DNA of 64,000 nt, taken from an uncultured Actinomycetota bacterium (GTDB lineage Bacteria; Actinomycetota; Actinomycetes; JAHEKZ01). Below, piece by piece: positions 1,899 to 23,396 of the stretch (position 1 is its first letter; every line of letters starts with the position of its first letter). The notes below the pieces were generated by a model. It had not been told where the DNA came from and made no database searches. It saw nothing but the letters and a program-made list of their open reading frames with translations. Location of the stretch: NCBI GenBank assembly GCA_963718235.1, contig CAVQYR010000001.1, positions 512,001 through 576,000 on the forward strand, read 5' to 3'. A program made the translations under genes and the position numbers.

Positions 1899-2517
1899 GT
1901 CCCCGGATCATGCTCGTCGCCATGACGAAGTCCGCTGGAACGATCAGTACGACATAACCGGCGTTGATCCACCAGGGTTGCGTGCGGCCCCGGGTGCGGA
2001 GCAGGAATCTCGTGCCCGAACCCTCCGGCTCCAACACGAAGGTCCATGCCCATTCCAGCCGAGCGCCGAAGCGGTCTCGCCACGAAGCCGGAAAGTGCGT
2101 CGTCGAATGCAGGACGAGCAGGTGAGGTGCCTCGGCGCATCGGACGACGAACTCGGCGGTCCCGGGTGGCCCATCGGGGATGGTGTCACCTACCACGAGG
2201 TCTCGCATCAGCTCGGGTCTGAGGTCGTCGGCGCTGGCCCAGTTCGCCGGGAACAGCAGTGCGTCGACCCAGCGCGCGGTGTACCAGCCGCCACGGTGCC
2301 ATCCAGTCTGGGTCAGCCATGGCCAGACCTGCTCGGGCGGCGCCGGCAGCGACCCGGCGTGGTTCGTCACCACGGTGGGTCGAGTGACCAGTCCGTCACT
2401 GACGAGCTGTCGGCGACGTTCGTCTCGGCGAGTTCCGGAGGTGCGGCCTAGCCACTGCATCGCTGCGTATGCCGTCCCAGCAGCGAGGACTGCAACGAAC
2501 TCTGTCCGAGTTCTCAT
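1867..2517 (-). CDS. SRPBCC/polyketide-cyclase-like hypothetical protein
   Basis: VWPWLTQTGWHRGGWY and WAWTFVLEPEGSGTRFLLR resemble actinobacterial SRPBCC-like proteins. Confidence 0.6.
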   Translation of the reverse strand: MRTRTEFVAVLAAGTAYAAMQWLGRTSGTRRDERRRQLVSDGLVTRPTVVTNHAGSLPAPPEQVWPWLTQTGWHRGGWYTARWVDALLFPANWASADDLRPELMRDLVVGDTIPDGPPGTAEFVVRCAEAPHLLVLHSTTHFPASWRDRFGARLEWAWTFVLEPEGSGTRFLLRTRGRTQPWWINAGYVVLIVPADFVMATSMIRGLRRRVQSQSG

Positions 2518-2570
2518 GGGTGGCTCTCACTGGCTCGCCGTTACCTGTTCAGCACCGTACCGTGACGAGC

Positions 2571-4205
<1,635 letters not shown>

Positions 4206-4249
4206 CCTGCACACGTTCGGGGGGCCGGCGATTGACGCGAGGAGCCGAC

Positions 4250-4903
4250 GTGACTGCCCAACAGCCGATCGAAGTCCGTGACATGGCGATCGTCCACCGC
4301 ACGTTCCGGGCTGCGTACGACGAAGCCGCCCGGCTGGTCGAGGCCGAGACCGATCCGACCCCGGAGCGCGTGGCGTTCCTCGCCGACCACATCGAGATGA
4401 CCCTCGACCTGCTGCACCACCACCACGAGGGCGAGGACGAGCTGTTGTGGCCCCTGCTGCTCGAACGGGTGCCCGAGCAGGCCGAGATGGTCCAGCACGT
4501 GGCCGACCAGCATGACGATGTCGCAGCCGCCGTCGAGCACGCCAGGATCGCGGTGTCGACCTGGCGGGTGAGCCCTCAGGCCGCTGAACGGGAGGCCCTC
4601 GCGGCGTCGCTTCGCGGGCTGAACGGCGTCCTGCAGACGCATCTGGACGCGGAGGAGCAGCAGGTCGTCCCACTGGCTGCAGTGACGCTGACCCAGGAGG
4701 AATGGAACGCCATCGGCGCGCACTCGAGGGGGTCCATCCCGAAGGACAAGCTCTTCATCGCGTTCGGCATGCTGCTCGAACCGCTGTCCGACGCCGACCG
4801 CGCCTACATGCTGTCGGAGGTGCCAGCGCCAGTGAAGCTGGTCTGGAGGACGTTGGGTCAACGGTCCTGGCGTTCCTACGCCCGGCGCCTACGGCCGGCC
4901 TGA
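4250..4903 (+). CDS. Hemerythrin-domain protein
   Basis: MAIVHRTFR, LHHHHEGEDELLWP, QHDDV, HLDAEEQQVVPL; GAGGAG RBS before GTG 4250. Confidence 0.85.
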   Translation: MTAQQPIEVRDMAIVHRTFRAAYDEAARLVEAETDPTPERVAFLADHIEMTLDLLHHHHEGEDELLWPLLLERVPEQAEMVQHVADQHDDVAAAVEHARIAVSTWRVSPQAAEREALAASLRGLNGVLQTHLDAEEQQVVPLAAVTLTQEEWNAIGAHSRGSIPKDKLFIAFGMLLEPLSDADRAYMLSEVPAPVKLVWRTLGQRSWRSYARRLRPA

Positions 4904-4969
4904 CGCGCGGCTCGCACAACCTCGCGGCGCGTCGTTGCACGCGAACTGCGACGCCTCTGCCCAGAATGT

Positions 4970-5127
4970 GACGAGGCCCCTCCAACCAAGAGATGGAGGG
5001 GCCTCGCCCGATCCGACCGAAGTCGGACCGGCCGCCGGTTCGCTCTCCCGCCCCCCGGTCCTGAAGTTGCCCTCTGGTCCAGGTGGTCCGGAAGTTGCCC
5101 TCCGGCCGGGTGCGCCTCGCGGCGACG
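4970..5127 (-). ncRNA. Candidate structured non-coding RNA, family not recognised
   Basis: Minus strand shows two tandem GAGG-GCAA-CUUC (GNRA) hairpins, a 9-bp stem with a cUUCGg tetraloop, a terminal hairpin, and upstream TTGCGG-N17-TAGAAC. Confidence 0.6.
4972..5006. terminator. 13-bp perfect hairpin, probable terminator
   Basis: CGAGGCCCCTCCA-accaagaga-TGGAGGGGCCTCG. Confidence 0.7.
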
Positions 5128-5390
5128 TAGGAGAGTTCTAGTCGCTGGCTCGTGGGACCGCAAGGGGTTCACGCCAGGCTTTTCCAGGGATTTCTCCACC
5201 CACAGGTCGGTCCACAGGCTCGTCCGCGTGTGTCCCCAGCCGGTCCCCAGTCCCGTCCACAGCTGCTGTGGACGACGGGGTGCTGTCGATCACCGACCGA
5301 CGTCGCCGGTCGGTGATCGACTGACGGGCCGTCCCGGACCTTCTAGGGTGAGTACGAACGATCTGGGCAAGATCCCTCGTGGGGTGACTC

Positions 5391-6806
5391 GTGCGCCGAC
5401 TCGCCGTTGTCGGGTCGATGCTGGCCCTTCTCGCCGTGCTGGTGCTTCTTGCTTCGCTTCGCCCAACATCCCCCTCCAGAGAGGTGCTCGTCGGCAAGAC
5501 TGGTGCTGTGGAGCAACCGCGTGGACCGGCACCCGTGGATGCCAATGCCTCCCTAGCGGCCGGCCTCCTGCGTGCGGTGCGTGCCGCCGACTTCGCGTCG
5601 GTGGTGGACTACCAGTTCGACAAGGCCGGGGCGCCCGCTCCGCAGGTGTCCGCACCACCCAACGTCGACGTTGCCGTGATCCGGCTCGACCGCCATGGAC
5701 GACCGTCGGGGGCGGCGAACGTCGTGTACTCACGCGACTTTCCGCGCGGCCGGGTGGTGCGACTCGACGACAACCTGGCTGCGACCGGTATCGACTGGCG
5801 GGCGTGGGACTCCGCCCGGTCGGACGGCAACTGGAAGGCACGGTTCCCACCCGGCTCTTCGCTCGTCCCCGGCGTTGAGGGCAAGGTCTTCATGTCGCCC
5901 TACCCGGCGTCGACGTTCAAGCTGCTCGTGGCCTTCAACACCCTGCGGCTCGTAGACGACGGGACGATCTCCCTTCGCCGTACCGTGCGCTACGGCCCGC
6001 TGGGTGCGTCGACGTGCCCCGGGGGTCAGCCCACGATGGTTGCCACCACCCGAGAGCTGCTCGACCGCATGATCACCTACTCGGACAACACCTCCGCGTG
6101 TGTGCTGCTCGAGCAGATCGCCGACCTGCACGAGAACCAGGCGCTGAATCGCGGCTTCCGGGCGCTCGGCCTGCCGACCCTGCAGGTCACCGGGATCGAT
6201 GGGGCGAGCGGAGGGATGTGGAGCCCCGGCAAGATCACCATGACGGCCATGGACACCGCCCGGTTGCTTCTGCTCGTCGAGGGAGCGAGGGGCACGTTGT
6301 GGACCGATCCTTCGGGTGATCCCGTGCGGGCGTCTGCGGTCCTCAGCCGCCGGTCGAGGAGTCTGCTGAAGTCGATGCTGGCCCAGCAGGGCTTTCACAA
6401 GGTTCTGTCGACGACCAACTGGTGTGGTGCTTCCTACCCCCAACCGGGGATCCCCGCTCGGATGCCTCGACGCTGGATCGATCCGGCCGACGGAACCGTG
6501 ACCGTCGCCGGCTTCTCCTTCGGCCGAGACGTGCGTCCGTGCAATGACGAAGCCGAGGTGACCTTCGCCCACAAGACCGGCCTGACGTACGACTTCGTGT
6601 CCGACGCAGGGATCGTCGAGGCGCTCCCGGGTCAGGACGGGCGCCGCTACATCGTGGCGGTCTTCGCCAACTTGGGCTCTCGATTCGGCGATCCCCGCCG
6701 AGCCTCATCGTCGAAGACTCCGTGTCGCACCCCTGGTATGTGTTCCACGGAGAAGATGGGCATCCTCGGCCGAGCCATTGACGACCTGATGCGACGCGAT
6801 GCCTGA
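5391..6806 (+). CDS. Secreted serine hydrolase, class A beta-lactamase-like fold
   Basis: Signal peptide; SxxK (STFK), SDN and KTG motifs. Confidence 0.8.
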   Translation: MRRLAVVGSMLALLAVLVLLASLRPTSPSREVLVGKTGAVEQPRGPAPVDANASLAAGLLRAVRAADFASVVDYQFDKAGAPAPQVSAPPNVDVAVIRLDRHGRPSGAANVVYSRDFPRGRVVRLDDNLAATGIDWRAWDSARSDGNWKARFPPGSSLVPGVEGKVFMSPYPASTFKLLVAFNTLRLVDDGTISLRRTVRYGPLGASTCPGGQPTMVATTRELLDRMITYSDNTSACVLLEQIADLHENQALNRGFRALGLPTLQVTGIDGASGGMWSPGKITMTAMDTARLLLLVEGARGTLWTDPSGDPVRASAVLSRRSRSLLKSMLAQQGFHKVLSTTNWCGASYPQPGIPARMPRRWIDPADGTVTVAGFSFGRDVRPCNDEAEVTFAHKTGLTYDFVSDAGIVEALPGQDGRRYIVAVFANLGSRFGDPRRASSSKTPCRTPGMCSTEKMGILGRAIDDLMRRDA

Positions 6807-22886: not shown

Positions 22887-23396
22887 TCAGGGAAGCGGGT
22901 CGATGATCTCCTGGTGGGCCTGCGCGTTGCGGGCGAACGAGGCCTCGATCTCCAGCTCGGTCTCGGCCCGGTTGGCCCAGGTGGCGCCCTCGACTGACTT
23001 GCCGGGCTCGAGGTCCTTGTAGACCTCGAAGAAGTGCTGGATCTCCAGCTTGTCGAACTCGGGCATGTGGTGGATGTCGCGCAGGTGCTCCTTGCGCGGA
23101 TCGTGCGCGGGGACGCAGACCACCTTGTCGTCGCCGCCGGCCTCGTCGGTCATCCGGAACATCCCGATGGCGCGGCACATGATCACGCACCCGGGGAAGG
23201 TCGGCTCGTCGAGCAGGACGAGCGCGTCGAGCGGGTCGCCGTCCTGGCCCAGGGTGTTCTCGATGAAGCCGTAGTCGGCTGGGTACCGGGTCGAGGTGAA
23301 CAGCATCCGGTCGAGGCGGATGCGCCCGGTGTTCTTGTCCAGCTCGTACTTGTTGCGGTGACCCATGGGGATCTCCACGAAGACGTCGAACTCCAC
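22887..23396 (-). CDS. ppa: Inorganic pyrophosphatase
   Basis: [40 protein letters not shown]. Confidence 0.95.

Follow-up and report, generated by a model that had tools for sequence, protein, structure and literature searches.

A predicted structured RNA gene with an upstream DnaA-box-like array in one order of uncultured Actinomycetota

What, if anything, is encoded between two plus-strand protein genes in the genome of an uncultured Actinomycetota bacterium, where the minus strand carries a dense run of potential hairpins? The stretch analysed here, hereafter the window, comprises 64,000 nucleotides of contig CAVQYR010000001.1 (assembly GCA_963718235.1, positions 512,001 to 576,000, forward strand), and an earlier note, made from these letters alone, had read the hairpins near its left end as a stand-alone small RNA whose duplicated hairpins could be protein-binding sites. 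We predict with good confidence that a real, transcribed and structured RNA gene is present at this locus, and the RNA very probably represents a new family, outside those described so far. The earlier reading of a stand-alone, structured minus-strand RNA therefore stands, but it omitted a helix that closes the structure, the variable number of hairpins among relatives and an array of DnaA-box-like repeats upstream. The fuller statement that we put forward, of a stand-alone, DnaA-controlled, structured RNA that serves as a protein-binding scaffold, has in our view about an even chance of being correct as a whole.

The fold and its conservation

All of the sequence elements previously listed are present on the minus strand to within one base. 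The promoter-like blocks TTGCGG and TAGAAC, 17 nucleotides apart, are followed by the hairpin CCGGAGG-GCAA-CUUCCGG at 5105-5088 (placed before at about 5087-5104), the related hairpin CUGGACCAGAGG-GCAA-CUUCAGGACCGG at 5082-5055, a UUCG-capped hairpin, and a perfect 13-bp stem in which 5006-4994 is paired with 4984-4972 (Table 1). The structure, which like all folds reported here is a prediction, is non-random on this strand. Folded as minus strand, 4965-5135 gave -102.3 kcal/mol, compared with -78.2 +/- 4.6 kcal/mol in 200 shuffles, none of which equalled it (z -5.19), while the plus strand in the same test gave -81.6 kcal/mol (z -2.14). The element is single-copy in the window's genome. No minus-strand gene lies downstream of it, the adjacent genes being on the plus strand, so that it is not a leader. 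Nor does any credible open reading frame cover it: no frame is open in all relatives, and at five loci (L003, L006, L010, L014 and L015) all six frames are interrupted within the RNA. A cmscan of 3500-6500 against Rfam 15, the check that the earlier note had named, returned four matches at E<=10, all of them noise; the best one over the element, to the microRNA model mir-3158, scored 20.4 bits, where the cut-off is 97.

Altogether 19 loci carry the element, drawn from four metagenome contigs and from the genomes of the window's order, which consists of one family with 20 genomes in five genera. These homologues retain the structure through compensatory changes, as seen in two alignments that are small and come from related genomes. 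In the alignment of the main sister genus, g4 (11 sequences, 52 pairs, 552 cells), 85.3% of cells form standard pairs, compared with 26.7-47.8% when the partners are slid by one to three columns, and 13 of the 52 pairs have changed on both sides. In that of the window's own type (five sequences, 60 pairs), 91.8% of cells are paired, compared with 30.7-49.8% when slid, and six pairs have changed on both sides. Conserved G-U pairs occur in both alignments: GU in seven of 11 sequences at columns 6-152 in g4, and, in the window's type, UG in four of five at columns 122-143 and GU in four of five at columns 58-65. Because such pairs become A-C on the other strand, they argue, together with the asymmetry in fold energy, that the RNA is read from the minus strand, and they bear out the claim that its G-U pairs work on that strand only.

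The comparison also revises the architecture. The conserved 5' end, ACG(U/A)CGCC, is paired about 90 nucleotides downstream (about 145 in g4), and a second, irregular helix comes next. Together this first helix, P1, and the irregular one close a junction, which holds two arms in the window's type and four in g4. The two GCAA hairpins are thus present as described, but they are not free-standing, since they lie within the junction that P1 closes. On the 3' side of the junction follow one to five independent hairpins of UNCG type and then the terminator hairpin. The single-sequence folds of all members are concordant in this respect. The number of hairpins ranges from three to nine, and the predicted RNA is longer in the sister genus, at about 270 nucleotides (some 230-300). 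Among the 134 loops in the 19 predicted folds, 62 are GNRA, 48 are YNCG and 24 are of other kinds, 19 of the last being terminator loops; GNRA loops are confined to the junction domain and UNCG-type loops to the tail. It seems that the class of loop is kept rather than its letters, as at L029 the GNRA loops read GAAA, GAAA, GAGA and GCAA while other members have GCAA or GUAA.

The long-range P1 helix has a competitor in a local hairpin, CGCC-GYGA-GGCG, which RNAalifold chose on mixed alignments. We favour P1 because of the single-sequence folds and because its fourth pair, A-U in all 11 g4 sequences, has become U-A or U-G in all five of the window's type; the two structures may also form in turn. 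Conservation of the 5' 22 nucleotides, of the closing helix and of the junction as a whole goes well past what a generic stable hairpin would show.

The upstream array and the extent of the module

Conservation does not stop at the RNA. While the earlier note had located the RNA itself, the conserved unit continues upstream to 5275, for a total of about 313 bp. Its upstream homology edge falls at 5273-5277 in six of six comparisons with relatives in other gene contexts, and its downstream edge at 4963 (L002), 4962-4969 (L003) or 4925 (L090); BLAST similarity runs from about 5279 to 5084 and reaches 4963 in near relatives. The unit comprises a box array, a putative promoter, the RNA and a putative terminator. 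Both promoter-like blocks, with the consensus TTGCG-N17/18-TA(G/C)AA(C/A), are kept in 19 of 19 loci, and the invariant ACG of the RNA starts six to seven nucleotides after the -10 block in every one of them. The A/T-richer spacer between the boxes and the -35 block is, judging from its composition, a possible UP-like element. The terminal hairpin is likely to be an intrinsic terminator, and possibly a two-way one shared with the convergent hemerythrin gene. Similar hairpins, GGCCCCTCC-loop-GGAGGGGCC, like that at 4972-5006 in the window, recur in other families of the class (L008, L011, L016-L018 and L023); since the matches fall on both strands, they look like a common terminator sequence.

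The array occupies about -69 to -147 and contains six repeats, of TGTGGAC and TGGGGAC types, which are helically phased; boxes 2-6 follow one another at 12, 11, 22 and 12 bp. Across the 19 loci the spacers between boxes vary freely, while CACA in box 1 and the cores in boxes 2-5 stay invariant. The motif TG[TG]GGA[CT] occurs five times in 91 bp, where 0.034 would be expected from its density in the genome (Poisson probability about 3e-10), and the RNA locus ties for the densest 150-bp cluster of this motif in the genome. Five such motifs, of both variants, also occur in the dnaA-dnaN spacer, beside the GC-skew minimum, and three in the region upstream of dnaA. The perfect actinomycete DnaA box is given as TT(G/C)TCCACA in the part of PMC4285127 available to us. 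We read the repeats as DnaA boxes because their cores fit ungapped, whereas the box of the regulator MtrA, GTCACAGCG, fits only with a one-base insertion; on sequence grounds, this identification of putative DnaA boxes is fairly probable.

Two further clusters of TGTGGAC/TGGGGAC motifs with 12-bp spacing were seen in the window's own genome (G000), outside the window (C2:463569-463700 and C1:220813-220960). With five motifs per 150 bp each, both match the RNA locus in density and exceed the dnaA-dnaN spacer (four), and they may be additional DnaA-box clusters.

Table 1. Features of the conserved module and of the predicted RNA, in window coordinates.
Feature	Coordinates	Strand	Remarks
Whole conserved module (box array, putative promoter, RNA, putative terminator)	4963-5275	minus	about 313 bp; bounded by homology edges
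Putative box 1, TCGTCCACA	5267-5275	minus	orientation opposite to boxes 2-6; one mismatch to TT(G/C)TCCACA; CACA core in 19/19 loci
Putative box 2, CTGTGGACG	5254-5262	minus	TGTGGA invariant in 19/19 loci
Putative box 3, CTGGGGACC	5242-5250	minus	TGGGGA invariant in 19/19 loci; variant also in dnaA-dnaN spacer
Putative box 4, CTGGGGACA	5231-5239	minus	11 bp past box 3; TGGGGA invariant in 19/19 loci
Putative box 5, CTGTGGACC	5209-5217	minus	22 bp past box 4; TGTGGA invariant in 19/19 loci
Putative box 6 (weak), CTGTGGGTG	5197-5205	minus	12 bp past box 5; cTGtGg in at least 80% of 19 loci; degenerate in a few
A/T-richer spacer, boxes to -35	5164-5196	minus	A-rich in all relatives, e.g. GAAAAACCC before TTGCG in the sister genus
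-35-like block, TTGCGG	5158-5163	minus	CTTGC invariant in 19/19 loci
-10-like block, TAGAAC	5135-5140	minus	TA.Aac conserved 17-18 nt 3' of the -35 block
Predicted RNA	4965-5128	minus	about 160 nt; start A5128 and 3' end inferred
P1, 5' strand, GUCGCCG	5120-5126	minus	pairs with 5037-5031; helix 1, 97.1% paired in the own-type alignment
P1, 3' strand, CGGCGGC	5031-5037	minus	from predicted fold and own-type alignment
Junction hairpin A, GCAA loop	5088-5105	minus	helix 3, 100% of cells paired in five sequences; one pair changed on both sides
Junction hairpin B, GCAA-capped, with an A-A mismatch below the loop	5052-5086	minus	helix 4, 82% paired; two pairs changed on both sides
UUCG-capped hairpin, CGGUCCGAC-UUCG-GUCGGAUCG	5009-5030	minus	helix 5, 97.8% paired; two pairs changed on both sides
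Terminal hairpin	4970-5008	minus	13-bp perfect stem, extended in the predicted fold; present in 19/19 loci

Distribution and gene context

Of the order's 20 genomes, which come from freshwater or sediment habitats, 14 were found to carry the RNA with a covariance model of its 5' domain (R1): both genomes of the window's genus, one of two in g2, 11 of 14 in g4, and neither of the single genomes of g3 and g5. BLAST against 61 related genomes gave extended similarity solely in the window's own family (13 of its 19 other genomes); the matches outside the order were to a terminator-like palindrome or due to chance, and among those inspected (L019-L022 and L024) four lay in apparent coding sequence and L022 was an unrelated stretch without the RNA. 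An R1 search of a class-wide sample, with 145 genomes from outside the order, yielded a lone match, in G127 (E 0.0043), which was rejected as the leader of ftsZ.

Searches of the wider collections relied solely on exact patterns. Among metagenome contigs 16 stretches matched, of which four are true members and the other 12 are chance occurrences without the RNA, mostly in apparent coding sequence, and none of the 19 matches to the 5' motif among viral contigs was accompanied by the RNA. A box-pattern scan of genome contigs from beyond the order returned 15 stretches. Nine of these were scored with the model, the other six bearing non-actinobacterial titles, and none of the nine scored better than E 0.07 or had a match near the pattern. 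A relaxed box pattern (three mismatches) found seven places in five genomes that lack the RNA, none of them with the RNA. Four of the stretches from the genome-contig scan (L062, L064, L066 and L067) were read through and set aside as unrelated elements. At three of them (L062, L064 and L066), repeated ACACGCAATCCGATGT elements stand beside TGGGGAT repeats in unrelated Actinomycetota bins, an arrangement that resembles iterons or the end of a mobile element.

One bin of the order, G012, contains two diverged copies of the RNA (L004 on contig C6 and L025 on C15), each directly 3' of ppa; with 4% contamination, these probably represent two strains in one bin and not a duplication.

The genes around the module differ from lineage to lineage. 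In the window, a hemerythrin-domain gene (4232-4903, plus strand) lies to its left, with an ABC-F ATPase gene (2469-4205) further left, and an open reading frame of the Beta-lactamase2 family (5391-6806, plus strand) lies to its right. Within the same genus, the other species instead has DUF998 and Peptidase_C26 genes beside the module, as does one metagenome contig; in g2 the neighbours are DUF429 and Exo_endo_phos genes, and in g4 they are ppa and a beta-lactamase-like gene orthologous to that of the window (57% identity); the g4 neighbours are also described as cell-wall enzymes, namely an S13 carboxypeptidase and a beta-lactamase-like hydrolase. The occurrence of the same block in at least four gene contexts indicates that the whole module, from array to terminator hairpin, is passed on and relocated as a unit, and this shared movement links the array with the RNA rather than with any adjacent gene. 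A single contig holds both dnaA (C1:258619-260442 in the window's genome, G000) and the RNA in three genomes, where the two are 257, 291 and 240 kb apart and always on opposite strands. From the GC skew, transcription of the RNA in the window's genome would run head-on to replication.

Some other features of the neighbourhood deserve mention. The ppa gene that directly precedes the module in the sister genus is found in the window at 22929-23384, on the same strand as the RNA and 18 kb from it, which shows that the region was rearranged. At 5285-5330, between the module and the beta-lactamase-like gene and just outside the conserved block, two arms of about 17 bp (GTCGATCACCGACCG ... CGGTCGGTGATCGAC) form a near-perfect palindrome, which could be an operator or a terminator. 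The Beta-lactamase2-family reading frame aligns to its orthologue only from residue 90, and a signal-peptide-like stretch lies in another frame from about 5399 (window 5228-5878), which together suggest a frameshift or a mis-set start. Elsewhere, the window's genome contains six genes of the WhiB family, which place it in the Actinomycetota, together with a match to 6C RNA below the cut-off.

Mode of action, rival explanations and known systems

In the mechanism that we propose as the most economical, an oligomer of DnaA on the array would set the activity of the promoter, and the level of the RNA would thus report the state of the replication initiator. The logic would follow that of sda in Bacillus, a gene under DnaA control, except that the output would be an RNA. 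The RNA would act by its shape, as a protein-binding scaffold or decoy, and not by base-pairing with mRNAs, as is suggested by the near absence of single-stranded sequence and by modular hairpins of variable number. That the boxes belong functionally to the RNA and bind DnaA we consider moderately probable; the scaffold or decoy mode is a tentative proposal that is somewhat more likely to fail than to hold. A more specific reading, and a rather unlikely one, is that of a sensor of replication state, in which DnaA on the phased six-box array would switch the promoter and the RNA would signal to another machine, for example (with as little confidence) by sequestering a protein of cell division, of the cell wall or of transcription. 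In a bolder version still, the GNRA loops would dock into helices of other copies to build a multimeric RNA particle.

Several findings weigh against the reading of a DnaA-controlled scaffold RNA. The RNA was not found in six of the 20 genomes of the order, including G003 (100% complete), G005 (96%) and G006 (90%), and its apparent absence from genomes so complete implies that it is dispensable in close relatives. No partner protein is retained beside the module, and none is known. A search for sequencing runs with the locus listed 20, all of DNA or of unknown type. Boxes 1-6 have 1, 2, 3, 2, 2 and 4 mismatches to the perfect DnaA box, all of them outside the TCCACA/TCCCCA core, with the 5' TTG poorly kept, and the 11-12-bp spacing of the direct repeats suits response regulators of the OmpR family as well. 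The changing count of generic, hyper-stable hairpins might reflect selection for stable folding alone and not for a binding surface. As for the promoter, the -10 hexamers (TAGAAC, TACAAA, TACAAC and TAAACC) end in C or A, and never in T, at all 19 loci, and a sigma-70 promoter scan of 4500-5800 called no promoter, which is explained by the missing terminal T. The housekeeping -10 of Streptomyces is TAGAPuT, from which TAGAAC is one base off; a -10 block without terminal T is unusual for a housekeeping promoter and may indicate that the promoter is served by a special sigma factor or is weak and depends on an activator. At the other end of the gene, the tail ACAUUCUGG is U-poor and a terminator scan made no call. 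In actinobacteria, a U tract is often missing from terminators.

The strongest challenge to a role for the RNA itself comes from the array. The latter could be the functional part, a locus that titrates or modulates DnaA in the manner of datA, DARS or the DnaA-box clusters of Bacillus, with the promoter serving it in cis: outward transcription would generate negative supercoiling behind the polymerase or clear DnaA, while the transcript folds fast and stays inert. A requirement for inertness alone would predict generic GNRA and UNCG hairpins in changing numbers, and both the range of three to nine hairpins and the exchangeable GNRA loops of L029 fit this prediction. Moreover, the array equals or exceeds oriC in density, the locus lies 240-291 kb from dnaA and always on the opposite strand in the three genomes concerned, two more box clusters in the genome have no RNA, and in B. 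subtilis initiation is regulated by non-oriC clusters near oriC (PMC3245932, in the part available). We nonetheless regard this explanation as unlikely. Against it speaks the conservation of junction, closing helix and 5' end, which goes well past the keeping of just any stable hairpin. The distance from oriC may merely reflect conserved gene order, and the module's neighbours differ even within a genus, in genomes that are fragmented. A second view retains the RNA gene and reassigns the repeats to a regulator of the OmpR family such as MtrA, which in mycobacteria binds oriC too, so that the RNA would belong to a cell-envelope or cell-cycle two-component regulon. The direct repeats are 11, 12 and 22 bp apart, a spacing typical of OmpR-family regulators; the cell-wall enzymes beside the module in the sister genus would suit such a regulon, and the MtrA box, as it appears in the portion of PMC4285127 at hand, resembles GTCCACAGC of box 1. 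Yet every box needs the one-base insertion to match the MtrA motif, while TCCACA fits the DnaA core without a gap; the dnaA-dnaN spacer and the region upstream of dnaA have clusters of the same motif types; and the neighbouring genes are not conserved. We think it improbable on balance that MtrA or a relative is the regulator.

Two other explanations concern the nature of the product. A classical small RNA that regulates mRNAs in trans by base-pairing would likewise be stand-alone, with its own promoter and terminator, and the purine-rich hairpin strands GGAGG and GAAGG resemble Shine-Dalgarno sequences; but the predicted folds leave hardly a nucleotide unpaired, their loops are closed tetraloops, and a conserved single-stranded seed is not evident (no target search was made), which leaves this a very doubtful explanation. 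It is most improbable that the locus instead codes for a small protein or works at the DNA level, for example as a cruciform or as a site of recombination or replication. Although the plus strand has hairpins too (z -2.14) and long open frames are common at 70% G+C, on the other strand the many conserved G-U pairs would turn into A-C, the fold energy is strand-asymmetric, every frame is interrupted in at least one homologue, and hairpins have been gained or lost whole.

How does the proposed DnaA-controlled RNA compare with known systems? At sda of Bacillus, five DnaA boxes upstream of the promoter activate it and are conserved among relatives (PMC2533591, in the part available to us). The locus described here is similar in that a box cluster, kept among relatives, lies upstream of the promoter of a very small regulator. 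The product of sda is a 46-residue protein, whereas here it is a structured RNA in an actinobacterial lineage, with no sequence relation and with DnaA binding and regulation that are putative. Clusters of boxes outside oriC include datA and DARS of E. coli, six DnaA-box clusters of B. subtilis and a high-affinity DnaA region of S. coelicolor (PMC4585315, PMC3245932 and PMC2533591, each as far as available). The present array shares with them its density and its place outside oriC, within about 240-290 kb of it, but differs in being joined to a promoter and a covarying RNA that move with it; none of these loci was described with such an RNA in the literature searched.

Among RNAs, the element is like Ms1 and 6S, which bind RNA polymerase, in being stand-alone and highly structured, and a shape-based action is plausible for it too. 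Its predicted fold, on which this comparison rests, has a closed junction of two to four arms followed by independent hairpins, as opposed to a rod with a large central bubble. The 6S model (RF00013) had no match in the region, nor any genome-wide at E<=0.1 (the genome is 95% complete), and 6S was therefore rejected. Ms1 loci are flanked by genes for a HAD-IB hydrolase (or 'inhibition of morphological differentiation') and an oxidoreductase, according to the available text of PMC9130861, unlike any of the four pairs of neighbours recorded here (hemerythrin/beta-lactamase-like, ppa/beta-lactamase-like, DUF998/Peptidase_C26 and DUF429/Exo_endo_phos), and an identity with Ms1 was rejected on both fold and neighbourhood. 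With CsrB and RsmZ the RNA has in common repeated similar hairpins whose number differs between relatives and a stand-alone gene with its own promoter, the regulation of which is putative here. However, GNRA and YNCG tetraloops, in place of GGA motifs, make up 110 of its 134 predicted loops, no ANGGA loop is among the 134, and CsrA (PF02599) had no match in the genome, in a search that was positive in three of 14 reference genomes used as control. A sponge of Csr type was thus rejected on loop type and for want of a CsrA gene in the genome. raiA, ROOL, GOLLD and OLE are orphan structured RNAs that came from comparative genomics. The RNA resembles them in its conserved, covarying, complex fold, its narrow range and a function without assignment, but it is much smaller, consists almost entirely of tetraloop-capped hairpins, has an upstream array and is absent from Rfam 15. 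Outside the window, at C1:457544-457616 of G000, 6C RNA was matched at 39.9 bits, below the cut-off of 47.

In the literature searched we found neither a DnaA-controlled small RNA nor a similar RNA made up of tetraloop hairpins throughout, and the words sRNA, small RNA and non-coding are absent from the available part of a 2021 review of the transcriptional targets of DnaA. To our knowledge, actinobacteria are without Hfq, CsrA and a canonical 6S RNA, and only a few of the structured RNAs that they have are understood. The RNA described here is of unusually clean design, each arm being capped by a GNRA or a UNCG loop, with the two kinds in separate domains and the number of arms differing between genera. 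Were the array a titration locus, it would document a non-oriC DnaA cluster in a new actinobacterial lineage. If DnaA does control the RNA, the replication initiator would be linked to riboregulation, and if the RNA also proved to be a sensor of replication state, it would be the first regulatory RNA under DnaA control and the equivalent, in RNA, of the Sda checkpoint.

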